NCBI GenBank assembly: GCA_048884965.1
Contig: JBHLQH010000036.1
Coordinates: 1-32,591, forward strand
Length of the DNA stretch: 32,591 nucleotides
Reading direction: 5' to 3'
Source of the DNA: Candidatus Thorarchaeota archaeon
GTDB lineage: Archaea > Asgardarchaeota > Thorarchaeia > Thorarchaeales > Thorarchaeaceae
In this document: positions 14,652 to 31,306 of the stretch, one piece after another
How positions within the stretch are numbered: the stretch's first letter is position 1
Layout: each line of letters starts with the position of its first letter
Notes under the pieces: generated by a model
Databases searched by the model: none
What the model was told of the DNA's origin: nothing
What the model saw: only the letters and a program-made list of their open reading frames with translations
Translations under genes and position numbers: made by a program

Positions 14652-15755
14652 CTATATGGTGGCGAACTCGAAAAATCGTTCAATTATTTTATCAAACTCC
14701 TTGCTAGTCTTCTTCTCGACATAATCTATCTGACTGAGTTGATAGTATCTTTCAAACGAATCAATTGAAAGCCTCAGAAGCTTCCTTGTCAATTCTGAAC
14801 TTTGGCGAGCAATCAAGATGCCATATGTATGGATGCCCTCTTGTACAATCATCTCTTGGTCTCCTACAAGGATACTCTCAACCTCACCTTTTCCTAACGT
14901 ATGCTTGACAAAATGCTTGATCCCTGTGAAGAAGGCTGAGAGAATCTCCAATCCTTCAACTCTTCCAACTTTGAACTTGAAGTGATAGAGTGGTAGACCG
15001 CTATCTTGCTTGATGATATACAGCTCGCTGATTTCCTGTGCTCCTATGAATAGGATTGTTGGATGCTTGTGAAACAAGATTGTAGCGAGAAGCACAAAAA
15101 GAGCGATATCAAGGACGAGTGCTGATGGATGGAATAGAGGTAGAAAAACAGGTGGCATGATAGTATGAACTGGTTGGACTATCAAGATGCTTGAGGTGAA
15201 TACAATTGTTGACCAGAATAAGACCTTGATCATGGTATCCTTCTGGAAGAAGCTCCATAGCCGTCTGTAGAGCCTTATTCCAAGAGGTATTGCAGATATC
15301 ACGACGGTTGAAAATAGAATAAACCGTCCGAATTCGAATTCCATCGAGTAGTCAACTACCCATCCAAACGATGTCCAAGAGACTGAAATGGCTGGGGGTG
15401 AGAATGTTCCCACTATGAGACCTCCTGAGAAGAGGAATGCTATGTTTGTCAACATCGATCTACTATCACTCTTGACACTCTCCATTGCGGAAATCATTAA
15501 GCCAAGAGCTAGGAATCCAAATGGTCGCAGGAAGTACTGAGATCCTCTGATGACAGCATAGTACTCTGGAGCGCTGAGAAGTCCCATCAGCAGAGAGGGT
15601 ATCGTCCACATCACAATGCATGTCGAAAATCCATTCGCGTATTGATAGAATCTGGTTCCAATAGTATTGTACAACCGCCGTGTTTGATACACTGAAACAA
15701 GACTTATGCTCAATAGACTGATTGCTGCAAGAGTCATCTGCATATCAACTGCCAT
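14652..15755 (-). CDS. 7TM membrane protein with C-terminal longin-like domain
   Basis: Seven hydrophobic segments in residues ~7-228, then LYIIKQDSGLPLYHFKF...LSAFFTGIKHFVKHTL...VESILVGDQEMIVQEGIHTYGILIA...LRLSIDSFERYY...FDKIIERFF (beta-beta-alpha-beta-beta-beta-alpha-alpha pattern). Confidence 0.72.
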   Translation of the reverse strand: MAVDMQMTLAAISLLSISLVSVYQTRRLYNTIGTRFYQYANGFSTCIVMWTIPSLLMGLLSAPEYYAVIRGSQYFLRPFGFLALGLMISAMESVKSDSRSMLTNIAFLFSGGLIVGTFSPPAISVSWTSFGWVVDYSMEFEFGRFILFSTVVISAIPLGIRLYRRLWSFFQKDTMIKVLFWSTIVFTSSILIVQPVHTIMPPVFLPLFHPSALVLDIALFVLLATILFHKHPTILFIGAQEISELYIIKQDSGLPLYHFKFKVGRVEGLEILSAFFTGIKHFVKHTLGKGEVESILVGDQEMIVQEGIHTYGILIARQSSELTRKLLRLSIDSFERYYQLSQIDYVEKKTSKEFDKIIERFFEFATI

Positions 15756-16881
15756 CCATCAAAGCCTCCTGTTTCGGTTGATGCCTATGGATTGCAAATT
15801 GAAAGAGATTTTCAATTTCTAATGAGAACCTCTCAAAATCTTTGATGTCTTTTTCCGCAAATGAAGATTCAAAGATCTGCAACGATTTCAGAAGCAATCT
15901 ATACGAGAGTAAAGAACCTCTATTGGTAAGCAACAAGCCATGGTATCTATCTCCCTCTGCAACTAGAATTTCGATATCTTCGACTCGGATGCTTTTAACA
16001 CTTCCCGGTTTTTCAAGCGCATCATTGAACACCTGTTGAATACTTGACTGTGCTATTGGGATTCCCATCAAGTCAGATATCGTGTCTTCTGAGTGAAACC
16101 TGTATCGGTATGCTATATCATGAGTAGTTCTCTCTACAAACAGGACTTCGAAGATGTCATAGCTTGACGCAAAGAAGATTGTTGGGTATATAGTAAGCAA
16201 TCGCGCAATGATCCCAGTAAAACCAGCAATCAGAATCATGAACAAGTAGTAGTTCGCACTAAATGGAAGAATATGGATTCCAAATGTAACTGAAATTATC
16301 ATGAATGATCCGAAGAACAGAAGAACTGCCATGAATCCTGCAAAGAGGATTGTCCCCTCACTCCCATAGATCGCCATCTTTCGAATCCTTCGCGCCACTT
16401 CAATCACAATTGGTCCTAGTACAATGCAAAGAAAAAAGAATTCCAAGATAGATAGTCCGATTACATAGGAGCCATAACTTTGCTGCCAGCCTATACCGGT
16501 CCATTCAACTAGATATTGACTAGGTATAAACCGGCTTGCAATAAGGCCCCCTGACAGTATAAATGCTGCATTGATAATCGATTCATTTGGGGTTTTCTTA
16601 ACATATTCAATAGCATGCACCAGAAAGGCAAGAGCGAGCAATCCGAATGATGCCATGAATAGCTGACCTGAGGTAACGAACTGCTCATAATCCTCTGCGG
16701 AGAATAATGCTGGGAAGTAGTATCCTAGGACCATTAAGCAAACACAGGCATAGGCATATGTTGCATACTGGAAGAATTGTGTCTTCAGGTCTAAATAGAG
16801 ACAATATGATATCCGCGTAGCGTAAAGACTAAGTAAAAGCGCTCCTGTTATCAGAATGATTCCGTACGGGTCAACGTTCAC
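15745..16881 (-). CDS. 7TM membrane protein with C-terminal longin-like domain (diverged paralog)
   Basis: Seven TM segments. Shares FxQYA, FGxLAL, NxAFxxSGGLI, WTxxGWxxxY, PTI and VxSIxVxDxExxVxEGxxxxGxL motifs with the downstream gene, which it overlaps by 11 nt. Confidence 0.7.
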   Translation of the reverse strand: MNVDPYGIILITGALLLSLYATRISYCLYLDLKTQFFQYATYAYACVCLMVLGYYFPALFSAEDYEQFVTSGQLFMASFGLLALAFLVHAIEYVKKTPNESIINAAFILSGGLIASRFIPSQYLVEWTGIGWQQSYGSYVIGLSILEFFFLCIVLGPIVIEVARRIRKMAIYGSEGTILFAGFMAVLLFFGSFMIISVTFGIHILPFSANYYLFMILIAGFTGIIARLLTIYPTIFFASSYDIFEVLFVERTTHDIAYRYRFHSEDTISDLMGIPIAQSSIQQVFNDALEKPGSVKSIRVEDIEILVAEGDRYHGLLLTNRGSLLSYRLLLKSLQIFESSFAEKDIKDFERFSLEIENLFQFAIHRHQPKQEALMDGS

Positions 16882-19308: not shown

Positions 19309-20241
19309 TCAATCCTTATGGTGCCAAAGTCCCTCTTGCTCTAATAGTCGTTCTAGGCGTATCTGACTCAATGTCTTTCCAACGATTGCGTTATAATATG
19401 TCATCGCAAAGCAGCGCTGAACTCCGGGAAGGTTCAACACTGCCATAGCTATTGGCTCCATATCTACTACTTTTTCTACAGTAAAAACTCCAAAGATTGT
19501 TGATTGAGATTCTACTACTCTTGAATTGAAATAGGAAACCGGATATTCACTATCTAACCAACTCGTGATATCATTAGCGGTTGTAATATCTTTGTCATAC
19601 TTGATCGTCATGGTGAATGCGGTATCTTTACCAAGGTTTGGATTCCATCGAAAGCCAACAGCTATCTTTCTATCGCCTTCAAGTTTCTGTAATACCTGCT
19701 TGACCTTCTTGGTACTCCATCCTAAATTCGTGGCAATATCATAGTCTATCATTCTTGGATTGACTGCTAATTGTCCGATGACACGAAGCTCGTTCTCTGT
19801 GAACTCAGGCATCTCTGGAAGATGTGACCTGCTTTCAAGCAGAACATCATGGACCTCAACTCCTTCAACGCCAGGAATCGATCCAATAAGCTGCGATAAT
19901 GCTACTAAATCGGACTCTTCTACATAATCGCAACTGACATAGTAATTACCATCAATAAAAGGCAATATCATATACACGCCTTCTACTTGCATCACAACAT
20001 CTCTGAATACATCAATTCTTACTGACGCATCAGTGAACACCATCAGTGTTGCTAATCTTAGATTGACTAAATCAGGATTAAGCATTACTACGAATCTATC
20101 AATGAATCCTGATGCCTCAAAATTATCTAATCTTTTTTTCACAGAAGAAGCTGATAGGTTGATTCTCGCTCCAAGATTACGATAGCTGATTCTGCCATTC
20201 CGAATCAATTCCAGCAATATTTTCTTATCTAGAGCGTCCAT
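19309..20241 (-). CDS. Lrp/AsnC-type regulator with two tandem wHTH-RAM modules
   Basis: MDALDKKILLELIRNGRISYRNLGARINLSASSVKKRLDNFEASGFIDRF and FTENELRVIGQLAVNPRMIDYDIATNLGWSTKKVKQVLQKLE. Confidence 0.85.
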   Translation of the reverse strand: MDALDKKILLELIRNGRISYRNLGARINLSASSVKKRLDNFEASGFIDRFVVMLNPDLVNLRLATLMVFTDASVRIDVFRDVVMQVEGVYMILPFIDGNYYVSCDYVEESDLVALSQLIGSIPGVEGVEVHDVLLESRSHLPEMPEFTENELRVIGQLAVNPRMIDYDIATNLGWSTKKVKQVLQKLEGDRKIAVGFRWNPNLGKDTAFTMTIKYDKDITTANDITSWLDSEYPVSYFNSRVVESQSTIFGVFTVEKVVDMEPIAMAVLNLPGVQRCFAMTYYNAIVGKTLSQIRLERLLEQEGLWHHKD

Positions 20242-20343
20242 ATACCCAAACCTCAGTGAATGTATGGTAGGGCATCCTCTGCTCTATCTGATTAACTTCC
20301 CGATTAGCGATAAATCTCATATGTGTCCATTTGAGCATATTAT

Positions 20344-21444
20344 TCAGAAAAACACATTTTGTGCTTCTTTGTGATTGGCTTCGGAATACATATGGCATGA
20401 AGCAAAGTGGCTCTTGTCTATTTCTACAGATTTTGGCTTTGTGCTGCAACAAATGTCTGACACGTACGGACATCGGGGATGAAATGCGCAACCTTGAGGT
20501 ATCTCCCTTGGGTTTGGAGGAGCGCCAGAAATTCCATGTAATTTTGGCCGCTCCCCGCCTGCAGCCAATCGCATCATTGCGATTGTTGGAAAGGAAGACA
20601 TCAGTCCTTGCGAGTAGGGATGCTTTGGTCTGTGGAATATCTCTTCTGCTGATCCCACTTCAACTATCCTTCCTGCATACATAATTCCGATACGGTCTGC
20701 CAGTTCAGCTATGACTCCAACGTCATGAGTCGCAATAACGAGCGCTACCTCGAATTCCTCTTTCACCATCTGAAGGAGACCAATCACTTCTCTTTGGACT
20801 GTTACATCCAGGGCGGAAGTAGGCTCATCGGCCATGACCAAATATGGAGCCGCAATTAGTGCCATCGCCAGTTTGATTCTTTGCGCCTCACCCCCCGAGA
20901 ATTTGCCAGGATCTAAGACATACCTGTCCTTTGCATCTGCAAGGCTTACTAGGTCCAGATACTCCAGTACTCTCTCCTTCATCTTCTCTGTCCGCAGATC
21001 TGTTTCGTGAATCTCTAGAGGCTCAGCTGTCTGCTTTCCTATGCTGAAGATGGGTGTTAGTGCACTGCCGAGTCCTTGAGGTATATACGCAATGTGTTTT
21101 CCAAGAAATTTCGCCCGTTCACGGTCACTGAGCGCGAGGAGATCAATGCCTCGATACATTGAACGACCAGTTACTGTCTTGTTCCATGTTTCCTTAGATT
21201 CATAATCTAGCTGAAATGGGAATATCCAATCATCTTGTATCTTCGCATCCTTGAATCTATGAGTTACTTGGAATAGTCCTAGTGCCGATGTCAGGAGTGA
21301 AGATTTGCCGCATCCTGACTCTCCGAGAATGCCAAAACACTCTCTGGGCTGCAAAGTGATTGATACACTATCGACAAGTACCAAGTCACCTTTATGGCTT
21401 GGAATGACCGCTCGTATGTTATCCAATTCGAACAGGTTCTTCAA
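20344..21444 (-). CDS. Oligopeptide/dipeptide ABC transporter ATPase (OppD/DppD family)
   Basis: Walker A GESGCGKS, Q-loop YIPQ, signature FSGGEAQR, Walker B VMADEPTSALD, THD, PKHPYSQGL, and C-terminal GCAFHPRCP...C...CH. Confidence 0.92.
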   Translation of the reverse strand: MKNLFELDNIRAVIPSHKGDLVLVDSVSITLQPRECFGILGESGCGKSSLLTSALGLFQVTHRFKDAKIQDDWIFPFQLDYESKETWNKTVTGRSMYRGIDLLALSDRERAKFLGKHIAYIPQGLGSALTPIFSIGKQTAEPLEIHETDLRTEKMKERVLEYLDLVSLADAKDRYVLDPGKFSGGEAQRIKLAMALIAAPYLVMADEPTSALDVTVQREVIGLLQMVKEEFEVALVIATHDVGVIAELADRIGIMYAGRIVEVGSAEEIFHRPKHPYSQGLMSSFPTIAMMRLAAGGERPKLHGISGAPPNPREIPQGCAFHPRCPYVSDICCSTKPKSVEIDKSHFASCHMYSEANHKEAQNVFF

Positions 21445-21451
21445 AACACAC

Positions 21452-21952
21452 TCACCCTCTGCCAGTATTTTCCCAGATTAGCCATCCTATGAAGATTTGA
21501 GAGCATCCTGTTACTCCATAGATGACGGGTGCTGCTGGTCTTGATAATCCTAATATCAAACCTATTAGAATGATCCAAAGTCCAGCTATGACTTCAGCTA
21601 ATATGATAGCAATGGCAGCCTTTGGACGCCCGAAAATTAGATTCATACCATTCATTTGAACTGCGACTCGCTCAGAAAGGGTTTCTCGATTCGAATCGAG
21701 GACCTCAATGCTAGAAATCTCCAAGATTTTGGATCCAACATATTGAATTCTCACAAGGTCCCCTATGTCTGGAACAACACCCTTTGCATACTGGCCATAA
21801 TGAAATTCCTTTCGACCTTCGTCTTCTCCTCTTAATGTGATCCTTCCTGAAGTGAATCCCGCCCATGCACCGAAATCCAATCCGATAACTATGCCTTCTG
21901 TAATCTTGGTACCTGGCGTGACTAAAGGTAGAGAATCTTGAGAGGTTGTCAA
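21452..21952 (-). CDS. Hypothetical membrane protein (N-terminal OB-like beta domain, two C-terminal TM helices)
   Basis: Beta-rich N-terminus (VPDIGDLVRIQY) and hydrophobic AAIAIILAEVIAGLWIILIGLILGL and VIYGVTGCSQIFIGWLIW. TTG start overlaps the upstream stop by 4 nt. Confidence 0.65.
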   Translation of the reverse strand: MTTSQDSLPLVTPGTKITEGIVIGLDFGAWAGFTSGRITLRGEDEGRKEFHYGQYAKGVVPDIGDLVRIQYVGSKILEISSIEVLDSNRETLSERVAVQMNGMNLIFGRPKAAIAIILAEVIAGLWIILIGLILGLSRPAAPVIYGVTGCSQIFIGWLIWENTGRG

Positions 21953-22377
21953 TAGACCTCAACTCTCGTGTCTTCTTTTTGATCCATAGACACCTCAACA
22001 TGAGATTTCTCTTCACTGAAGAATTCTATAATTTCCACAGAAGTAGGAGTTCCAATCATGGTCTTATTATTCCCTTCAAGTCTGGGGACTTTTCCTTTTG
22101 ACTGGATTCTTTTTCTGAATCCGTATTTTGAAACATCAATAACTTTCAATGTCCAATCCATCTTATCACATGCTCGAATTGCTGCATCTAGAAGCATGGC
22201 TTGTTGTGGTTCGAAGAGGGCAGCTTCAGAACCCATTCGGTCATAGGCTCCTGTTCTCATGGGACTAGCGCATTGATGTCCCAATGACTCAATATCTGCA
22301 CTGGAAGTGGATATCTTCATGGATTTTATGTAGAGTGTAAGTATTGGCTTCATCAATTGGGATTTCTCACCTATCAT
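21949..22377 (-). CDS. Hypothetical protein, possibly thioredoxin/glutaredoxin-like fold
   Basis: ILTLYIK...LKVIDVS...KVPRL...IGTPT pattern resembles a Trx fold with cis-Pro but has no CxxC. Start may be ATG 22353. Confidence 0.55.
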   Translation of the reverse strand: MIGEKSQLMKPILTLYIKSMKISTSSADIESLGHQCASPMRTGAYDRMGSEAALFEPQQAMLLDAAIRACDKMDWTLKVIDVSKYGFRKRIQSKGKVPRLEGNNKTMIGTPTSVEIIEFFSEEKSHVEVSMDQKEDTRVEVY

Positions 22378-22461
22378 ATTTCTTTAGATATGAAAGTAAT
22401 CCCTCGGGATGTATATAATGAGGTGTTTCAATGCGAGAGAACACCTCTTCCGTCGTTTCAC

Positions 22462-24306
22462 TCAATTTTCAGACATATAGGGGTCTTCATCAATATCGAT
22501 TCCAAAGTATCCCATATCCTCAAGAATCTCATCCATGGCTTGAGCTCCTGAAACCCATGTTACCTTCCATTTGTGTTCAGGTGTCAGGATAAGCTCAACA
22601 TCTGGAAGGTCTCCCAGAAGATTGTGGTTCATCTCAATAACATCCTGATATGCTCCCGTCAAAGCGATAACAAAGTATGACCCTTGGACGTTCTTCAGGT
22701 AACCTACAGGTATTCCTGTCCCCATCTCTTGATCTGGCATAGCGACAGGTCTGTAGTCCCTTGTAAACCACACCTCCCCAACATCCTTCCGATGGAATTG
22801 AGATATCTCTCCATCAGAATCACAAGTTATGTCCGCCAACCTGATGGTAGTTTCAGGTCTCACGTGGAGGTCTCTGACAGGTATAATTGGAAAATGCTGC
22901 TGAACTAAGACATGGTCTCCTGCTGCATTGAAGACACTAAAGTTGCCTATGACCAAATGATCTGGGTGCCAAATATCCTCGATAATCCTATCGGATCTAA
23001 GGCTCTTACTTCCAACTCTGGCCAAGTCTCTTCGCATCTCAGCTCTCATCTCTCCAATGAACTGCTCCTTCTCTCTCAATGAATCAAGGGAATCTGGTGT
23101 AAAGCTCCAGCTTGAGAGAAACTCGTTCCACACATCTACGAGTTCTGTGAAAGAAGTGGATTGTGCCATTTTCGTCGTCCAACTCTTCTTCTCAGATTCA
23201 AGCTCATCGGTCAGTCCATCACTTTGTGGAAAGACAGATCTGACTTCTAATGCCTTGATGACTACCATTGAGTATAGTGCGGTGATTCCTCTTCCAGATT
23301 CGATCATTACATCTGGCTGTAGTCTGCTTTCGTTTAGCTCCTCCATCCCTTCCATTATCCCGCTAATGAGCGAATGTGCATAGAGTTCCATGAGGTTCTC
23401 CTCATGTGAACTAGTGTAATCAATAGGCAGACCTCCACCGAAGTCAATTCGGTGTAATCTATCGAGACCTGCATCTTTCAGTTCATAGAACACTTTGGTC
23501 ATGAATTTGGCGAAACCATGGAAATCTTCGATTGCAGTGATTTGCGAGCCCACATGTCCAAGAACCGTCGAAACCGAATCCTCAAATCCACGCTCTTTCA
23601 AGAGGGAAATTACGTCAAATAGGTCGTGAATACTAAGTCCGAATTTGGAGTCTCTTCCTGCGGAATGCGACCAATGTCCTCTTACCCTCAAATAGGGCTT
23701 TATTCGAAGCACGAGGTTCGTTTCATGTGGCTTCAGAAGGTCAACAATTAGATTGGCTTCATGAAGTGATTCGATGGAAATGGCGATATTGTATCCCTCC
23801 CTTACGAACTCCTCAATCGTGCGTAGGTACTCAGGATCCTTTGCGCCATTACAGATTATCAACCGGTCCTTTTCGTTCTTAATGACGCTCTTGATTAGGA
23901 AGAGCTCAGCCTTTGTGCCAGCTTCAAGACCATAGTTTCGATCTGCTTGGAGGACAGGAATTACGCAGTCCTTTCTTTGGTTGACCTTTACTGGATATAC
24001 AGCTCCGAACTGGCCTGAGTAATCTAGATCGCCCATAACCCTATAGAATGCTGATTTCAGCTTCTTGATCTGGAAATGAATTAGCTGGGGCATACGGAGA
24101 GTGAATGAGGATGTATATGCAGTCTTTGATCCATTCTCCAAAATAATTTGGGAAATTAGTTCATTGAAGTCAATTGTTTTACCCATGAAATTGATGAAAA
24201 GGTCTCCCTCTTCACTGATATCCAAGAACTGCAAGTCTTTCTTTCCAAGTCCGAAGACAACCCGTGACTTTTCTATCGTCCACTCTTTTGCATCCACCAA
24301 TGTCAC
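22462..24306 (-). CDS. speA: Biosynthetic arginine decarboxylase (PLP fold-type III)
   Basis: YPVKVNQ (PLP Lys), YGLEAGTKAEL, ICNGAKDPEY, SKFGLS, HVGSQI, DFGGGLPIDY, ESGRG, NFSVF, QHFPIIP, LADITCDSDGEI, GAYQDV...HNL. Confidence 0.9.
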   Translation of the reverse strand: MTLVDAKEWTIEKSRVVFGLGKKDLQFLDISEEGDLFINFMGKTIDFNELISQIILENGSKTAYTSSFTLRMPQLIHFQIKKLKSAFYRVMGDLDYSGQFGAVYPVKVNQRKDCVIPVLQADRNYGLEAGTKAELFLIKSVIKNEKDRLIICNGAKDPEYLRTIEEFVREGYNIAISIESLHEANLIVDLLKPHETNLVLRIKPYLRVRGHWSHSAGRDSKFGLSIHDLFDVISLLKERGFEDSVSTVLGHVGSQITAIEDFHGFAKFMTKVFYELKDAGLDRLHRIDFGGGLPIDYTSSHEENLMELYAHSLISGIMEGMEELNESRLQPDVMIESGRGITALYSMVVIKALEVRSVFPQSDGLTDELESEKKSWTTKMAQSTSFTELVDVWNEFLSSWSFTPDSLDSLREKEQFIGEMRAEMRRDLARVGSKSLRSDRIIEDIWHPDHLVIGNFSVFNAAGDHVLVQQHFPIIPVRDLHVRPETTIRLADITCDSDGEISQFHRKDVGEVWFTRDYRPVAMPDQEMGTGIPVGYLKNVQGSYFVIALTGAYQDVIEMNHNLLGDLPDVELILTPEHKWKVTWVSGAQAMDEILEDMGYFGIDIDEDPYMSEN

Positions 24307-24326
24307 TTCCCGAAGGACTGGAGTCC

Positions 24327-25787
24327 CTACTGGGACTCGTCCTCTTTAATGGAATCAAGCATTCCTTGAAACGCTCTTGCTAGTTCGCCTATCTCATCGT
24401 CCTTATCCATGTAGCTCTTATCTACTTGGAGATCATCAGAATCGAGCTTCTCCTCTCGGATCATTGCTGAAACATTTCGAGTCGCAAGATCCATCAGATA
24501 CTGTAACGGACCCGTGATTTGATTGGCTACTACGACAGCCACAGCTCCCGCTATGAATATACCTGCAACGGTTATTGCAAGTATGAACATAGTTGCGGCG
24601 AGGTTCGCCTCTGCGATTCTTGCTTCAAGAGCTGGGATTGCGGCTTGAACCTCATTTACTGGTACGATGATGATGCAGATATATCCACCAACCTCGACTG
24701 GAGTGTAGGCTAGAATATAGTCTTCGCCTTCCTTACTGAAAACTTCAATTCCTGTGCTTCCTGACAGAATGTTATTGATCTGAATTGGTGTTAATGCAGA
24801 TTCAGTTCCATCCACCTCGAACTCCTGCAGAGTAGGCAATCTGCCAAATTGAGCATCATACCTCTCGTATACATCATCATCGACATCCGGATGTGCCAGA
24901 ATATCGCCACTTTCAGTTATGAGGGCTGCATAGCCTGTTTCAAGGACCTGAACATCAAGAATCTTTGTCCTGATGTTTTCAATAGAAATGTCTCCTGCTA
25001 CAATTCCAATTAGTGTCGCGGTATCGTCATATACTGCTCTCCCGATTGACATGAGTAGTACGTTATCGATTGGATCGAGATAGGGTCCATAGTAGACCAT
25101 CTGTCCCATACCCGCTCTGATAACTTGATAGAACTCATCGTCTGTTGGGTACCAAGGATCGCTTCCTCTGTCAGTATCTGACCCTCCTACATCACTACCT
25201 GGGTAGTTTATCCAGAGGTCGTTCTCAAAGCCAACATAGAGCCATCTGAATTCTGGGAGCTGAACATGTGCATACTGGAACATGAAATCGAGATTCGACA
25301 CTCTGTCTAGCCTATCTTGGTTTGATGTGTAGTAGGTCATATAATTGCCCGAATTTGAACCTGGAATGTACCAGCTGCTATAATTCCATGAGATATTGAT
25401 TCCATATCTCTCTGCATCATAGTATGCATCTTCAGGTGCTGTAGATAGGTTTCGAAAGAGATAATCATAGTAGATGTCCTCTCTGGGCAGATATGTGGAG
25501 TCCGAATCAAATAGCTGTTCGCACTCTTCTGCTATTGCCGCCACTAATCCCTCCGCGCTCTGTAGCTTCTGACTGATCACGCGTGCATTCTCTTCGGCGG
25601 TTATCTCCATATTACGACGAATCTGCTCTTCAAGTGCATCGGAACTTTGATCCGTTGTAAAGCCGCCAATCAAACCAATGAACTGGTATGAAATGAACCC
25701 TGTGACCCCAAGTGAAAGAACCGAGATTACGATGAAGGTCACGATAACGTTTCTTCGGAAACTGCCTTTTTTCTGTGTTGTTGCCAT
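24327..25787 (-). CDS. TM-dCache-TM-HAMP membrane sensor with no output domain
   Basis: N-terminal TM; WLYVGFE...INYP, GPYLDP...SIGRAVYD...LIGIVAGDI, TGYAALITESGDILAHP (dCache_1); TM2; HAMP ITGPLQYL...DDEIGELARAFQGML; stop 8 residues later. Confidence 0.88.
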   Translation of the reverse strand: MATTQKKGSFRRNVIVTFIVISVLSLGVTGFISYQFIGLIGGFTTDQSSDALEEQIRRNMEITAEENARVISQKLQSAEGLVAAIAEECEQLFDSDSTYLPREDIYYDYLFRNLSTAPEDAYYDAERYGINISWNYSSWYIPGSNSGNYMTYYTSNQDRLDRVSNLDFMFQYAHVQLPEFRWLYVGFENDLWINYPGSDVGGSDTDRGSDPWYPTDDEFYQVIRAGMGQMVYYGPYLDPIDNVLLMSIGRAVYDDTATLIGIVAGDISIENIRTKILDVQVLETGYAALITESGDILAHPDVDDDVYERYDAQFGRLPTLQEFEVDGTESALTPIQINNILSGSTGIEVFSKEGEDYILAYTPVEVGGYICIIIVPVNEVQAAIPALEARIAEANLAATMFILAITVAGIFIAGAVAVVVANQITGPLQYLMDLATRNVSAMIREEKLDSDDLQVDKSYMDKDDEIGELARAFQGMLDSIKEDESQ

Positions 25788-25799
25788 TACATTTCCCTC

Positions 25800-28688
25800 C
25801 TAGTAATCGTCTGTTGTTCCTCCGACTTCGAGCTGTGCCATCAGCACGCCAACCTCTTGGAAGGCTCTCTCGATATCCAATCTCACATCTCTGCTGTTCA
25901 CAACAGAGAAGTATTGTCCTTGTGGGATTGATTCACAAACGGATTCCAGTAGCTCTTCATAGTTCATCCTTTTACCTGTCTTGTCAGATCGAATATTGGC
26001 TTCGATAGCGTTTGCCAATTCTTCACCAACACCTATGATGATGAGATTGACATCCAGATGATTATCGCGAATGAAGCCTTCTATCGTCAATGGTTTCTTC
26101 CTGCTTTGTCTGTCTTTCTCTGTACGAATACCTTTGAGAATGTCCAGTGAGAACTTCTCAGAGCTATTGTCTTGTCCATCTGTGAGTGCAATAATCCACC
26201 GATGCTCACTCGATTCAACAAGGTTTAGGTCCTCAAGAGCGTGACCAAGTGCATCATAGAATGCGGTTGCATAGTTGGGATAGCGAAGTGAATCAAGAGC
26301 TTTCCAAATTGGACTGTCTCTTGAATCCTCGTACTCACCCTTCTTGGTCAACGGAAGAAGCTTCTGATACGTTGAGTTGAAGATGATGATACTCACTTCG
26401 TCTTGTGGATTCACCTGACTTGAGAGAATCTCCTTCGCACCAGTTACTGCAGCTTCTATTCTGTCCTGAGCTCTCATGCTACCAGAGTAATCAATGACTA
26501 GCACGACGCTCTTCTTGAACTGAATTGATCTTCTTAGTTTCTCAGCCTGTCTTCGTATATCGTGACTTGATTCATCAAGTTGGTCTTTGACATCTGCAAG
26601 TCTCTGCATCGCATAGACCTGTAGCCAGAATTCTTCAGTTCGCTCAGCGTAGTTGATCGAATCTTGGTATGCGGTTTTTGCGTTGCGCCACTCACCTTGT
26701 ATCTCATAGAACTCTCCTACGTGATAGTTGATGTACGCTAATCCTCTATCATATCCATGCTCATCAGCTATACGTTTTGCCTCATCGAACTTGGAACGTG
26801 CTTTACTGTATTGGCCTTGTTTCATCATCACAAGTCCCATTGCATCGTACCTTCGGGCAAGTCCCCTCATGTTACCGATGGTCTGGTCAACGGCCTCTGC
26901 ATCCTCAAGCTTTTCGATTGCCTCATCGTATTTCTTTAGATCCATCTCGATGAGTGCCATGTTATGATAGACAGAGGCAATACGATCCATTGCATCTGTT
27001 TCATTAAGACCACCCGCCTTCGCCTGCTCAAGGAGTTCCTTGGCAAGTCCGAGTGACCTCTCATAATATTCTAGCGCATTGCCAGTATCCCCTCGTTGTC
27101 TGAAGACGTTTCCAATGTTCAAATACATTGTCTGTTCTCCGATGTCAATGTCAAGACGTCTACTGATTTCCAAAAGGTTCTGATAGTTTGCTAGTGCTCG
27201 ATTGAGGTCGCCTCGAATGAAGGCTTGGTTACCAAATCTACAGGCTTCCTGGAAGCTAAGTAATGCATCAACGGTTGTGCCAATCTCCTCGTACATTGCC
27301 CCTGATGCTGTGATGCTTCTTGTGAAGTCCTGCTTTGCCATCTTCTCTACAAGTCCAGTCATTTCCTTGATGGGTTCGACAACTGCTCTCCCCCTCCTGA
27401 ATGACACTGCTGCAACTATAATGGCAAACACTCCCAAGACCCCTCCAAGAATCACTGTTAGGAATAGAGTCTGACCTTGGACAAGTGCGAGAATGTCTAC
27501 TGCTGGCTGCACGACCTCAGAGGCAGGTACAACTACAGCGAGCAAGAAACCCGTGCTCTCTACTCTTTCATAGGTTATGTACCACTCTTGGTTGCTCTTT
27601 GTGAAGGTTTCCTGACCGCTCCCTGCTATAAGTGCTGAAGCAAGAATCGAAGCGAAAGCTGTCCCCTCGGCAGATGATGTGAATTCTAATTCGATGAGTG
27701 ACTCTCGTTCATCTGTGAGGTCAGGGTGTGCAAGAACGTCGCCATCAGACTCCAAGATATATCCATAGCCGCTTTGAAGGACCTGTATGTCTAGAACACT
27801 TGAGAGAATCGTATCCATTGTTACATCTGCGGAAACGACTCCAATGAGGGTACCGTTATCGAAATAGATTGGTCTTCCAAGTGAAATGACTAAACCTGTG
27901 GATGGATCACCATATGGACTTGTGATGGCAATGCTGTTGTCGCTCATGGGAAGAGATGCGGCATTTGTATACCACTCTTCTTGAGGAGGGTCATAATCAT
28001 CAGCGGGTGCAAGGGGTGCTCCAGTTACATCATCCATTCTGAAATATTGAAGTGTGTCGTATGGATAATTCCGAAAGAGATGTGTGTCGCATACTCCTGG
28101 ATCAATTCCCATATAGAGCCAGATGTAATCCTCATTCATTTCGTGCAAAGATTTGAACACGTTATCCATGTTACTTGAAATATTAAGATAGGTCTGAGTC
28201 ATATGATCGAGTGGAAATGGATTTCCGCCAGATGGATAATATGGTCTAGGCATGTAATAACAACTAACATCGAAGGATATCATACCTGGACTCATGACCA
28301 CTCCATTATCAAGTTCGGAATAGTACAAGTCATTGTATGCTACTCCTGGTACAGTCATTCCTGTTTCCGCTAGTTCTACTGCACTATCCCAATAGTATGA
28401 GTGTCGTGGTGCCGCATTTATCCTTCCATTAAAAAGATCTTCGGCATAGTTCTCCATCAGAAAGACGCCATCTATGTAATTCTGCATTCTTTCTTCGATG
28501 AAAAGCGCAGTATCACCTGCGATTCTTTGGAGATTATCAATTTCCTCATTTTGCAGCGCGGTTGCGGCATCGTTTGCATTTTCACTTGATACATTGAATA
28601 TAGTCGTCACTGAAATTGCAGAGATGAACAATATAGGTATCAAAGAAACTGTCACAAATATTATGATTATCCTCTTACTAATGTCCAT
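25800..28688 (-). CDS. TM-dCache-TM-HAMP-TPR-VWA membrane receptor
   Basis: dCache (YDPPQEEWY, TSPYGDP, GVVSADV, GYGYILESDGDVLAHP); TM2; HAMP VVEPIKEM...EEIG; about 5-6 TPRs (YLNIGNVFRQRGDTGNALEYYERSL, YHNMALI, YDAMGLV); VWA with MIDAS IDYSGSM, TAFYDAL, IALTDGQDN, IIGVG. Confidence 0.88.
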   Translation of the reverse strand: MDISKRIIIIFVTVSLIPILFISAISVTTIFNVSSENANDAATALQNEEIDNLQRIAGDTALFIEERMQNYIDGVFLMENYAEDLFNGRINAAPRHSYYWDSAVELAETGMTVPGVAYNDLYYSELDNGVVMSPGMISFDVSCYYMPRPYYPSGGNPFPLDHMTQTYLNISSNMDNVFKSLHEMNEDYIWLYMGIDPGVCDTHLFRNYPYDTLQYFRMDDVTGAPLAPADDYDPPQEEWYTNAASLPMSDNSIAITSPYGDPSTGLVISLGRPIYFDNGTLIGVVSADVTMDTILSSVLDIQVLQSGYGYILESDGDVLAHPDLTDERESLIELEFTSSAEGTAFASILASALIAGSGQETFTKSNQEWYITYERVESTGFLLAVVVPASEVVQPAVDILALVQGQTLFLTVILGGVLGVFAIIVAAVSFRRGRAVVEPIKEMTGLVEKMAKQDFTRSITASGAMYEEIGTTVDALLSFQEACRFGNQAFIRGDLNRALANYQNLLEISRRLDIDIGEQTMYLNIGNVFRQRGDTGNALEYYERSLGLAKELLEQAKAGGLNETDAMDRIASVYHNMALIEMDLKKYDEAIEKLEDAEAVDQTIGNMRGLARRYDAMGLVMMKQGQYSKARSKFDEAKRIADEHGYDRGLAYINYHVGEFYEIQGEWRNAKTAYQDSINYAERTEEFWLQVYAMQRLADVKDQLDESSHDIRRQAEKLRRSIQFKKSVVLVIDYSGSMRAQDRIEAAVTGAKEILSSQVNPQDEVSIIIFNSTYQKLLPLTKKGEYEDSRDSPIWKALDSLRYPNYATAFYDALGHALEDLNLVESSEHRWIIALTDGQDNSSEKFSLDILKGIRTEKDRQSRKKPLTIEGFIRDNHLDVNLIIIGVGEELANAIEANIRSDKTGKRMNYEELLESVCESIPQGQYFSVVNSRDVRLDIERAFQEVGVLMAQLEVGGTTDDY

Positions 28689-28706
28689 TTTTCCTACTCC
28701 ACACTC

Positions 28707-30152
28707 CTATCGGCTCAACTCCAATAGCTCACTGTGTAGTTTTTTAATAAATTGATCAGCATCTTGTTTCTTATTCAGAGCAAAGTAATCATCATCAAGG
28801 CGTCCTTCGATTGTACCATCCGCCAACAGAATCATCAATGTCTGTCGGAGGATTGCTCTCGGGACACCGGTATCCCTTACCATCCTGTCAATCTCAACTC
28901 GATTCTCTCCCTTTAGAAGAGATTGCAGAATAGCTGGAATATTCCCAAGCTTCTCCTTTGATGGCATATCCGCCGTTTCTTTCTTTTGCTTGACTGTTCG
29001 GACGAATGTATTCCTATCGAGATGTCCTTCAATCTCTTTGCACTCAATCATACTCTGCAGGCTCCGCCTTAGATTGTATGACGCTGGACCTGGCAATGTA
29101 CGTCTTAGGATTCGGTCCAATTCCTTCAGCTTTATCTTGCTATGCTTTGTTGTGATTGAATCGATACTTTCTTTGATGAACTCCTTGACCTTGTATTCAG
29201 CAAGTCGTTCTAGGACCGCACCACATGAATTACATCTCTTTGCTTCCGGTAAAGACGGTGCTCCACAATTCCCACATTTGATAGCACGGCGGTACAATGT
29301 CATCTTTGTTGATTCAATCTCTTGAAGGATTGTTTTCTCTTCCCTTGTTTCTTTTGTGCTGGCAATTATTTCCCAGAAGCTAAGTCGTCTGTCATCCGTG
29401 CTCACTACGAGATAGGTTGTATCAGATTCATCATCAGCAACCCCTGTCGCAAGAGCCTTTGGTCTACCTGTAAGTTCGATCTTCTCGATCTGATTCCCAT
29501 CAATATCCCAGATTATTAGTTCCTTCTCTCGCTCCCCGGTAACGAATAGCTTTCTCTTTCCGAATGTAAGAACTCCAAAGACTGTGAGAGCATTTCCAAG
29601 CTTCAATCGCCTTAGAATATACCCCGCAGAGGTTAGAATGGTCAGGTTTCCGTGCCTGTCTGCTACAACAACTTCTAGCTCTTTATCTTCAGTGATATCT
29701 TCCAGCCAAACATCTGCGATGTTCCCTTCCATTCTCCGACTGAATAGAGCTTCCTTGTCATCGTTCCATAGAATAACCCTATTATTCTGGAGTGCAACTA
29801 CAACCTCGGCAGAATCATCACCATCAACATCTCTAGCATCACAAGCAATGACAGTGCTTTCAAGTTCGATCTTCCACATTGGTTTTCCTTGATGATCGAC
29901 GACTAGGACTCGCTTACCCACACCACCAACGAGTGCGTCCTTTCCTTCACCGTCGATATCGCCGACTGCTATGCATCTAACTTTGCTGCTCCAATTCCTT
30001 GCAGATTTTAGCGATCCTGAAACATCATAGACTCGCATCTTATCTCCATAGTCTAGCGCGAATACTTGGGCATTTCCTTGTCCGCTTTGACGTATGTAGA
30101 TACTATAAGCATCTGCTGAGATTGGGACTTTCGCGACCTCTCTCAACCTCAA
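28707..30152 (-). CDS. Soluble FG-GAP-like beta-propeller + zinc ribbon + two PCI-like winged helices
   Basis: About 42-aa blades with VGDIDGEGKDALVGG, ARDVDGDDSAEVVVA and LEDITEDKELEVVVA; CGNCGAP...RCNSCG; C-terminal LQSMIECKEIEGHLD and LMILLADGTIEGRLD. No signal peptide or TM; TTG start. Confidence 0.72.
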   Translation of the reverse strand: MRLREVAKVPISADAYSIYIRQSGQGNAQVFALDYGDKMRVYDVSGSLKSARNWSSKVRCIAVGDIDGEGKDALVGGVGKRVLVVDHQGKPMWKIELESTVIACDARDVDGDDSAEVVVALQNNRVILWNDDKEALFSRRMEGNIADVWLEDITEDKELEVVVADRHGNLTILTSAGYILRRLKLGNALTVFGVLTFGKRKLFVTGEREKELIIWDIDGNQIEKIELTGRPKALATGVADDESDTTYLVVSTDDRRLSFWEIIASTKETREEKTILQEIESTKMTLYRRAIKCGNCGAPSLPEAKRCNSCGAVLERLAEYKVKEFIKESIDSITTKHSKIKLKELDRILRRTLPGPASYNLRRSLQSMIECKEIEGHLDRNTFVRTVKQKKETADMPSKEKLGNIPAILQSLLKGENRVEIDRMVRDTGVPRAILRQTLMILLADGTIEGRLDDDYFALNKKQDADQFIKKLHSELLELSR

Positions 30153-30223
30153 CTTTTCTAAAGCACCTTAAGCTCGTATCAGTATAAGACAATATAAGTC
30201 TTTGATTATTTTTACCAAACCCA

Positions 30224-31306
30224 ATGGCATTCGGTAAATCATGCAAAACAGGCTTCCTGTGGGACTCGGCCTTAGAAACATTCGATTTTGGAAGCCGTCA
30301 TCCAGTACGAGTTGGTCGCTTCCAGATGGTACGGGATTTTATCGAGACCTCAGGTTTCTTGGAACTCCCCAATGTGGTTACCATCAAACCTCGCCCTCTT
30401 GATGAAGAGATTCTTCAGAGAATTCATTCCCCAGAGTATATCGATAAAGTGAAGGAGATATCTAGAACGGGAAAAGGTGAGATCGATATCGATACGCCCG
30501 GTTTCAAGGGAATCTATGAGAATGCCATCATTACGAATGGTGCAACTGTGACAGGAATAGAATCTGTTCTATCTGGCGATGTTGATCATTTCTACACTCC
30601 CACTGGTGGGTTTCATCATGCAAGCTATGATAGAGGAGGCGGCTTTTGCATCTTTAATGATATTGCCGCATCAGTTCATAGGTTGAAGGATGCAGGACTG
30701 AGCAGGATTCTCATCGCAGACTTCGATGTCCATCACGGGAATGGGACTCAGTCATATTTCTACAGCGATCCTGGAGTGATGCAAATCTCATTTCATGAAG
30801 ATCCTGATTGGTTGTATCCACATGAGGGCTACATTTCTGAAATTGGAGATGGTCTTGGTTGTGGTTACAACATCAATATGTATTTTCCTTTGGACTCCGG
30901 TGATCAAGTATACAGATATGCATTTGATAAACTAGTTCCCAAACTAATCAGATTCTATCATCCTGAGTTCATCATCTTTCTACCTGGATTTGATGCGCAT
31001 TATCGCGATCCTCTGGCTCATCTGACTCTGACAACTCATATGATTCGATATGTTGCTGATACCATTCATCAATTAGCGCATCAGCTGTGTGGTGGACGCT
31101 TAGGAGTTGTATCGGGTGGAGGTTATAATCCAGATACATTTCATTGGGGTATTGGTGAAGTTCTCTCAGTGCTAACTGGTCATGGATACACATCCCCTCC
31201 TCAGAATCCCCCCTTTGAAGATGATGAGGAATCTTGGGAAATTGTGCAGAAGAATGTTCAAGAAATAGAAGGAACTGTGTTTCCGATATTGGGAATTGAT
31301 ACTTAG
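30224..31306 (+). CDS. Zn-dependent deacetylase, HDAC/AcuC/acetylpolyamine amidohydrolase superfamily
   Basis: HPVRVGR, IHSPEY, DTP, GGFHHA, GFCIFNDIA, DFDVHHGNGTQ, ISFHE, GFDAHYRDPL, GGGY. Confidence 0.92.
   Translation: MAFGKSCKTGFLWDSALETFDFGSRHPVRVGRFQMVRDFIETSGFLELPNVVTIKPRPLDEEILQRIHSPEYIDKVKEISRTGKGEIDIDTPGFKGIYENAIITNGATVTGIESVLSGDVDHFYTPTGGFHHASYDRGGGFCIFNDIAASVHRLKDAGLSRILIADFDVHHGNGTQSYFYSDPGVMQISFHEDPDWLYPHEGYISEIGDGLGCGYNINMYFPLDSGDQVYRYAFDKLVPKLIRFYHPEFIIFLPGFDAHYRDPLAHLTLTTHMIRYVADTIHQLAHQLCGGRLGVVSGGGYNPDTFHWGIGEVLSVLTGHGYTSPPQNPPFEDDEESWEIVQKNVQEIEGTVFPILGIDT

Follow-up and report, generated by a model that had tools for sequence, protein, structure and literature searches.

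Organization of the locus

We analyzed a stretch of 32,591 nucleotides (nt) of Thorarchaeota DNA (assembly GCA_048884965.1, contig JBHLQH010000036.1, positions 1 to 32,591; below, the window) and, within it, four closely spaced genes on the minus strand. These genes encode a protein with a β-propeller, a zinc ribbon, and two winged helices (P0001), a long receptor with dCache, HAMP, TPR, and VWA domains (P0002), a short receptor with dCache and HAMP domains alone (P0003), and an arginine decarboxylase of the SpeA type (P0004) (Table 1). An earlier note, made from the DNA letters without database searches, had proposed them as a new signaling system, and its four-gene layout proved exact, including the gaps of 18, 12, and 20 nt. 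With moderate confidence, we favor the view that this operon encodes an enzyme-free transmembrane amine-sensing complex that is tied to agmatine synthesis and would feed back on SpeA. In agreement with the earlier note, which had seen no kinase, methyl-accepting chemotaxis protein (MCP), cyclase, or phosphatase domain, none of the classical outputs (histidine kinase, MCP, GGDEF/EAL, cyclase, PP2C) is present in the Pfam or NCBIfam lists for the four proteins.

As judged from spacing and upstream signals, the four genes are one operon. A single TATA box serves both the operon and a divergent gene of the histone deacetylase (HDAC) family. Among 56 unique sequences upstream of the propeller gene, 55 have a TATA-like motif in the -45 bin and 54 a Shine-Dalgarno (SD)-like motif, and the length of the HDAC-propeller intergenic region is constant across relatives (63-73 nt). 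Within 90 nt upstream of the other genes, a TATA-like motif was detected in 1 of 58 regions for the long receptor, 0 of 57 for the short receptor, and 1 of 47 for speA, and SD-like sites precede both receptor genes. The possibility that speA has a promoter of its own and is unlinked in relatives, which the earlier note had named as fatal to its proposal, is not borne out, as no TATA-like motif precedes speA and the linkage is kept. The HDAC gene starts so close to the shared TATA box that no room remains for a leader or an SD site, and it is probably expressed from the same TATA box as a leaderless transcript.

Table 1. Features of the operon and of its flanks (aa, amino acids; AF2, AlphaFold2; ORF, open reading frame; TM, transmembrane segment; WH, winged helix)
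Feature	Position (nt)	Strand	Basis or remark
P0001, predicted propeller-zinc ribbon-2xWH adaptor, 481 aa	28707..30152	-	ORF, Pfam
P0001 FG-GAP/BBS2-like β-propeller, aa 1-265	29358-30152	-	Pfam, AF2
P0001 C4 zinc ribbon, aa 291-316	29205-29282	-	
P0001 basic winged helix WH1, aa 338-388	28989-29141	-	
P0001 PCI-like winged helix WH2, aa 405-460	28773-28940	-	
P0002, long receptor (dCache-HAMP-TPR-VWA), 962 aa	25800..28688	-	ORF, Pfam/NCBIfam
P0002 dCache_1, predicted extracellular, ~aa 35-405	27474-28586	-	after TM1
P0002 pocket residue E237	27978-27980	-	
P0002 HAMP, aa 436-482	27243-27383	-	after TM2
P0002 TPR, aa 483-692	26613-27242	-	
P0002 junction helix, aa 693-722	26523-26612	-	
P0002 VWA with intact MIDAS, aa 723-962	25803-26522	-	
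P0003, short putative co-receptor (dCache-HAMP), 486 aa	24327..25787	-	ORF, Pfam
P0003 pocket residue D217	25137-25139	-	
P0004, SpeA-type PLP-dependent arginine decarboxylase, 614 aa	22462..24306	-	ORF, NCBIfam
Divergent promoter region between HDAC and propeller genes, 71 nt	30153..30223	none	sequence
TATA box TTATAT	30192-30197		~45 nt before propeller start, ~27 nt before HDAC start
Shine-Dalgarno site GGTGC	30163-30167		in divergent promoter region
Class II HDAC-family deacetylase, divergent	30224..31306	+	Pfam Hist_deacetyl, 1.8e-76
Operon end	22412..22447	-	read directly from sequence
Perfect 8-bp hairpin	22420-22447		15 nt past speA stop
TTATATA box	22412-22418		34 nt before the gene next after speA

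Conservation of the receptor pair with speA

The synteny on which the earlier proposal depended was found: the cassette is kept in order and strand across about 60 Thorarchaeota species. When 24 genomes within the window's family were searched whole with three queries, the matches in about 19 of them were neighbors with unchanged order and orientation. In sixty further species-level loci, every contig of sufficient length shows the divergent HDAC gene followed by the genes for the propeller protein, the long receptor, the short receptor, and SpeA. Such conservation goes far beyond what chance would give.

In a second Asgard order, the genes for the long receptor, the short receptor, and SpeA are consecutive in three loci; in a fourth, speA is inverted and still adjoins the receptor pair. 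The propeller gene was not found in the second-order loci, and the HDAC gene, a conserved neighbor in the Thorarchaeota family only, is absent from them as well. Since the receptors and SpeA stay adjacent in an order without the propeller, the conserved core is the receptor pair plus SpeA; on this comparison of loci, Thorarchaeota alone have added the HDAC gene and the gene for the propeller protein. The four-gene cassette as proposed earlier thus holds for Thorarchaeota, with the propeller gene outside the core. In the most divergent loci (L024 and L025) SpeA is the sole shared neighbor that remains, and the adjacency lasts down to 31-38% identity, through two orders and one speA inversion, while all other neighbors change.

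RING-finger genes flank the core in three second-order loci (L025:12059-12406, L095:2441-2716, and L099:12973-13791), roughly where Thorarchaeota have the propeller gene. Two of the products are RING-H2 proteins (115 and 91 aa); the third, of 272 aa, has a weak RING at its C terminus.

The two dCache receptors and their ligand pockets

The long receptor matches dCache_1 (65 bits), TPR_12 (69 bits), and VWA_2 (45 bits, cut-off 27) in Pfam. Its HAMP domain reaches only 17.4 bits (PF00672, cut-off 25); that of the second-order ortholog P0185 scores 26.1 bits. The short receptor has the order TM1, dCache_1 (72.8 bits), TM2, and HAMP (29.1 bits when scanned alone), and then stops. It is paralogous to the long receptor, with 26-30% identity across the sensor, and always adjoins it in both Asgard orders. 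The topology derived from hydrophobic segments and flanking positive charges suggests that in both proteins the dCache domain is outside and the remainder inside. The acidic C-terminal tail of the short receptor was considered as a ligand of the TPR or of the metal ion-dependent adhesion site (MIDAS) of the VWA domain, and was rejected as not general because the tail is basic in L025, the one second-order locus read.

Among solved structures, the best sequence matches of the receptors are the dCache_1 chemoreceptors for amino acids. In the HMMER alignment of P0002 with PctA, residues Y232, W239, Y240, Y259, and D288 correspond to PctA Y121, W128, Y129, Y144, and D173, and E237 occupies the position of R126, which in PctA binds the carboxylate of the ligand (PMC10589655). 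The amino-group and aromatic residues of the dCache_1AA type are present in both receptors: the Y129 and D173 equivalents are invariant; the Y144 equivalent never varies among short receptors and is Y52/F2 among long ones; at the W128 position, every long receptor has Trp, and the short receptors have W48/F8. The carboxylate-binding Arg of this type is found in neither receptor, as its position is filled by E48/Q7 in 55 unique orthologs of the long receptor and by E35/D18/Q2/N1 in 56 of the short one, and never by Arg or Lys.

In their membrane-distal pockets, both receptors have thus retained the residues for the amino group of the ligand, with an acid in place of the Arg that would hold its carboxylate. 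Such a change fits a ligand with an amine where the carboxylate would sit, as decarboxylation yields, and the amine ligand suggested in the earlier note fits the Arg-to-acid change in both pockets. The known amine-binding dCache domains accept agmatine, putrescine, spermidine, and small amines through Tyr and Asp residues and an extra acid (PMC6234866, PMC10589655), and the affinity of known polyamine dCache receptors for agmatine lies in the nanomolar to micromolar range (PMC6234866). Among solved structures, 3LIB (1.5e-8) matches the short receptor best, in an alignment that begins past the first half of the AM motif of amine sensors, which is defined for PctD, PacA, McpX, and 3LIB.

By sequence, the distal Cache module of the long receptor (27700-28100) matches human CACHD1 (8S7C) better than any other solved structure (E 8e-12), the bacterial chemoreceptors included.

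The output arm and its predicted contact with the propeller protein

The five MIDAS residues of the VWA domain of P0002 (D733, S735, and S737 of the D-x-S-x-S motif and the metal-site residues T808 and D837) do not vary in either order. When the cytoplasmic arm (residues 478-962) was modeled with the propeller protein, the interface score ipSAE was 0.67, 0.62, and 0.68, and 0.00 for the best of three controls; contact agreement among runs was at least 89%, and the predicted local distance difference test (pLDDT) score of the partners was at least 79. For calibration, 58 of 80 solved complexes attain the ipSAE mark used, and 2 of 110 mismatched pairs do so; these counts hold only roughly here, our own alignments having been fed to the test. 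The model thus supports binding between the TPR-VWA arm and the propeller protein without demonstrating it. The predicted contacts of P0002 lie in residues 695-720, 749-760, 785-789, and 937-951. The modeled helix between the TPRs and the VWA domain (residues 695-720) spans the propeller face and touches successive blades, and parts of the VWA domain away from the MIDAS supply additional contacts. The pairing of TPR-VWA with the propeller, as foreseen in the earlier note, is therefore retained in the prediction with clean controls, and it runs through the helix before the VWA domain, not through the MIDAS.

The core contacts are invariant on both sides: H709, R712, A715, and E716 in the arm and Y16, Y35, S56, and R59 in the propeller protein. 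All propeller-bearing lineages, even one at 39% identity, have retained the helix motif SH-x-x-RR-x-AE; in the order without the propeller gene, it is lost, together with a two-residue deletion, in 7 of 7 receptors. The MIDAS residues are unchanged in these seven receptors, one partial sequence missing the fifth residue. The way in which the helix motif tracks the propeller gene in the alignments provides an independent check on the predicted contact, which would place the propeller adaptor on the helix-VWA junction in Thorarchaeota. Being conserved in both orders and unused in the modeled interface, the MIDAS probably binds a partner common to both.

The propeller-winged helix protein

P0001 is predicted to be a cytoplasmic adaptor. 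Its propeller matches the Pfam family Beta-prop_CGLA (40.4 bits, cut-off 26.8), with FG-GAP_3 and BBS2_Mid below their cut-offs, and by fold it resembles the propellers of BBS1/2/9, KICSTOR, and IFT-A. The AF2 models (pLDDT 83 for the whole protein and 81.5 for its C-terminal part) place the propeller first (residues 1-263), then the ribbon between a long helix and a second one, and last the two winged helices. The zinc-ribbon cysteines C293, C296, C307, and C310 are invariant across orthologs. WH1 is strongly basic (mean net charge +5.4) and has the invariant residues R350, Y359, N360, R362, and Q366; WH2 is slightly acidic.

The PCI label that the earlier note had attached to this region applies in part. 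WH2 scores 22.2 bits against the Pfam cut-off of 22 in P0001 and 22.2-25.7 bits for PF01399 in 8 of 16 orthologs, and AF2 places another winged helix and a linker ahead of it, not the helical solenoid of a PCI domain. A Foldseek search with the model of the zinc ribbon and both winged helices gave no match at E <= 0.001, and VIA-align returned generic winged helices only, with Z up to 8.3 (Stn1, APC2/cullin WHB, UFL1/DDRGK1, PCI, and ORC/Cdc6). These fold matches leave use in DNA binding and use as a scaffold undistinguished. A profile of the same region retrieved the Thorarchaeota orthologs, one distant homolog, and weakly matching multi-winged-helix proteins of the PCI type; the P0001 family is restricted to Thorarchaeota.

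The sole distant full-length homolog is P0016 (456 aa, with FG-GAP and PCI matches), which is encoded among genes for an Arf/Ras-like GTPase, an SMCR8_C-domain protein, and a Gtr1/RagA-like GTPase (neighborhood at L093:9122-12945 and 20181-21371), with neither receptors nor speA nearby. This neighborhood, together with the fold matches to KICSTOR and the BBSome, hints that the propeller family may serve small-GTPase systems elsewhere in Asgard archaea.

SpeA as the source of agmatine

P0004 matches Orn_Arg_deC_N (81.6 bits) and aligns at full length with PRK05354 (335 bits against a cut-off of 369, E 8e-100) and TIGR01273 (312 against 624). It carries the sequences YPVKVN, with the Lys that binds pyridoxal phosphate (PLP), HVGSQ, GGGLP, and CDSDG, which we take to be the motifs of the SpeA family. 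In the genome (95.7% complete) it is the only protein with an Orn_Arg_deC_N match, and a pyruvoyl-dependent arginine decarboxylase was not found there. As the only arginine decarboxylase found, SpeA makes the operon the carrier of the only recognized source of agmatine in the genome. TiaS, which uses agmatine to modify tRNA-Ile, is encoded in it as well, and so, away from the operon, is one arginase-family protein. On this gene content SpeA is a housekeeping enzyme.

These archaeal SpeAs lack the last 45-60 residues of bacterial SpeA. In both orders, the receptor-linked enzymes end in the acidic motif D-x-P-Y-[MIVL], which is degenerate or absent in two unlinked SpeAs.

Proposed mechanism and alternative explanations

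The interpretation offered in the earlier note is supported in part: the synteny, the linkage of speA, and a predicted contact between TPR-VWA and the propeller protein stand; the propeller protein lies outside the conserved core, and the predicted contact leaves the MIDAS free. In the mechanism that we propose, the two paralogous, outward-facing dCache_1-HAMP receptors would act as a hetero-complex, and their ligand would be a cationic amine: agmatine, putrescine, or another polyamine. Binding of this ligand may alter what the TPR-helix-VWA arm holds, and the arm would in turn feed back on SpeA. As the core conserved in two orders consists of the receptors and SpeA, we tentatively prefer capture or release of SpeA at the protein level, possibly with the acidic D-x-P-Y tail docking on the MIDAS or the TPR, as the form of this feedback, while regarding it as a possible route that may well prove wrong. 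A further reading, in which the arm is a receptor-controlled protein-fate platform, seems to us quite unlikely. Here external amines would decide between capture, sequestration, and ubiquitin-like or proteasomal turnover of SpeA, and the arm would work with the PCI-like winged helix/propeller adaptor in Thorarchaeota or with the RING-finger neighbors in the sister order. If true, archaea would have a counterpart of the control that antizyme exerts on polyamine synthesis, and would have assembled it from modules otherwise characteristic of scaffold complexes in eukaryotes.

Several observations weigh against the proposed feedback on SpeA. Everything beyond the domain calls and the synteny is prediction, and linkage in an operon means co-expression, not regulation of SpeA. 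The Arg-to-acid change is compatible with many cationic ligands or with none, and since the sequence matches do not include the known polyamine dCache receptors McpU and TlpQ, the identity of the ligand is inferred. Taken as a whole, the predicted interface residues are on average no better conserved than the rest of the two proteins, and the SpeA tail partly overlaps a region that is conserved in bacterial SpeA too. When 51 unique HDAC-propeller intergenic regions were aligned, only the TATA box and the SD site proved conserved, with nothing operator-like besides them; palindromes such as GTGCAC beside the TATA box are confined to single lineages. The module is also dispensable. In L026 (genome G007) it is deleted and speA is kept, with remnants of the propeller (residues 28-68; 41 residues) and of the short receptor (residues 367-465; 99 residues) left between the HDAC gene and speA (L026:8011-8352 and nearby); with the module complete in the same-genus genome G022, this loss is evidently a recent deletion. 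L027 and L028 have speA without the receptor module, and on the closed chromosome CP070658.1 (L066:11490-16296) the long receptor is broken into two ORFs (200 and 695 aa), with speA not nearby. The next gene in L066 (649 aa) begins like the short receptor and has a different ectodomain.

The main alternative, which we consider rather unlikely, is membrane-tethered control of transcription: P0001 would be a DNA-binding regulator that is held or released by the arm and controls the shared operon/HDAC promoter, much as CadC controls cadBA in response to the amine product. The strongly basic WH1 with its invariant residues, the single TATA box serving both transcripts, and the predicted docking of the adaptor on the arm would all suit such a role. 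However, it would act without any conserved operator, the second order retains the receptors and SpeA without P0001, and the winged helices also match scaffold-type domains (PCI, cullin WHB, UFL1, Stn1), although these matches are middling and no better than those to generic DNA-binding winged helices. Amine signaling, either quorum-sensing-like through an exported SpeA product or environmental through amines from decaying biomass, with an output to a target unrelated to SpeA such as small-GTPase or ubiquitin-like machinery, is unlikely in our judgment. It would account for the layout of a synthase next to receptors and for the amine-type pockets, as well as for the distant adaptor homolog among Arf-like, SMCR8-like, and RagA-like genes without a receptor and the RING-finger genes beside the core in three second-order loci; on the other hand, no exporter is conserved in the locus, and agmatine, with TiaS encoded and no arginine decarboxylase found besides SpeA, looks like a housekeeping metabolite rather than a dedicated signal. 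Finally, the receptor module may sense something unrelated and merely be cotranscribed with a housekeeping speA. The loss of the module in L026, its absence beside speA in L027 and L028, and the genes downstream of speA (LarE, LipS2), which are unrelated to polyamines, point that way. We nevertheless hold such linkage without a functional tie to be very unlikely, given an adjacency that outlasts all other neighbors through two orders and an inversion of speA, and a pocket change that matches the chemistry of decarboxylation.

Comparison with known systems

The amino-acid chemoreceptors PctA/PctB/PctC and Mlp24/Mlp37 (dCache_1AA) have the same sensor fold, the same TM-dCache-TM-HAMP topology, and the same amino-group residues; the receptors described here differ in the replacement of Arg by Glu or Asp, in the absence of an MCP signaling domain, and in the output, which is TPR-VWA in one chain and none in the other. 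McpU, TlpQ, and the dCache_1AM receptors (e.g., that of M. mazei, 3LIB) likewise have an extracellular dCache domain and bind amines, but drive chemotaxis or kinases, and McpU and TlpQ are unmatched here by sequence. As in MCPs, the output would be a protein-interaction platform and not an enzyme; unlike MCPs, these receptors lack an MCPsignal domain, neither CheA nor CheW was identified as a partner, and the predicted partner is a propeller-winged helix protein.

In enterobacteria, CadC-cadBA and AdiY-adiA control basic amino-acid decarboxylases, with a membrane sensor at the decarboxylase locus and feedback from the amine product. CadC-cadBA is the nearest system in logic, as a membrane sensor is tied to a decarboxylase locus; however, CadC is one ToxR-like chain that itself carries the DNA-binding domain, contains no dCache, HAMP, TPR, VWA, or propeller, and is not homologous. 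The integrin head combines an FG-GAP propeller with a MIDAS-bearing VWA domain, and here too an FG-GAP-like propeller is predicted to lie against a VWA-containing chain. In the present case, however, both partners would be cytoplasmic, the contact consists of a helix across the propeller and a side of the VWA domain, and FG-GAP is below cut-off. The MIDAS is not among the confident interface residues of the prediction, and an integrin-like head was set aside for this reason. The proteins α2δ and CACHD1 have dCache and VWA domains in common with P0002, but theirs are both extracellular in one chain, whereas the VWA domain here would be cytoplasmic, behind the HAMP domain and the TPRs.

To our knowledge, prokaryotic transmembrane sensing is understood almost wholly through enzymatic or chemotaxis outputs. 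Here a widespread dCache-HAMP sensor ends in TPR and VWA domains and comes with an output-less twin. Full-text literature searches on Thorarchaeota arginine decarboxylase, Asgard dCache domains, and dCache/HAMP/VWA/TPR combinations turned up no description of the system, and the database names of its proteins are generic ("TPR protein", "cache domain protein", "hypothetical"). If confirmed, it would represent a new output logic for dCache-HAMP receptors, the first proposed sensor of agmatine/polyamine homeostasis in archaea, and a case of Asgard signaling by scaffold assembly with domains that dominate eukaryotic complexes. It is directly testable, as the ectodomains, the cytoplasmic arm, the adaptor, and SpeA are targets in the form of soluble domains.

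Neighboring genes

The best solved relatives of the HDAC gene product are the domains of HDAC6; APAH matches at 1e-30. The LarE gene follows speA in most relatives; it was considered as a member of the system and rejected, having no evident link to polyamines. In the window, four extra genes intervene between speA and LarE, in a window-specific insertion (19309-22377) preceded by its own TTATATA box. Two of them, of 142 and 166 aa, belong to no family; the others encode an orphan ABC ATPase of the OppD-like kind, which no permease accompanies, and a regulator of the Lrp/AsnC type (310 aa) with a double winged helix-turn-helix.

DNA of this stretch is present in only four sediment DNA runs, all of one study, and no RNA run is listed for it. 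Further along it, at 14652-16881, lie two overlapping genes (367 and 378 aa) without a Pfam family, described in the earlier note as 7TM-longin paralogs; they recur near the cassette in L013, L015, L029, L037, and L040, in an inconsistent linkage.

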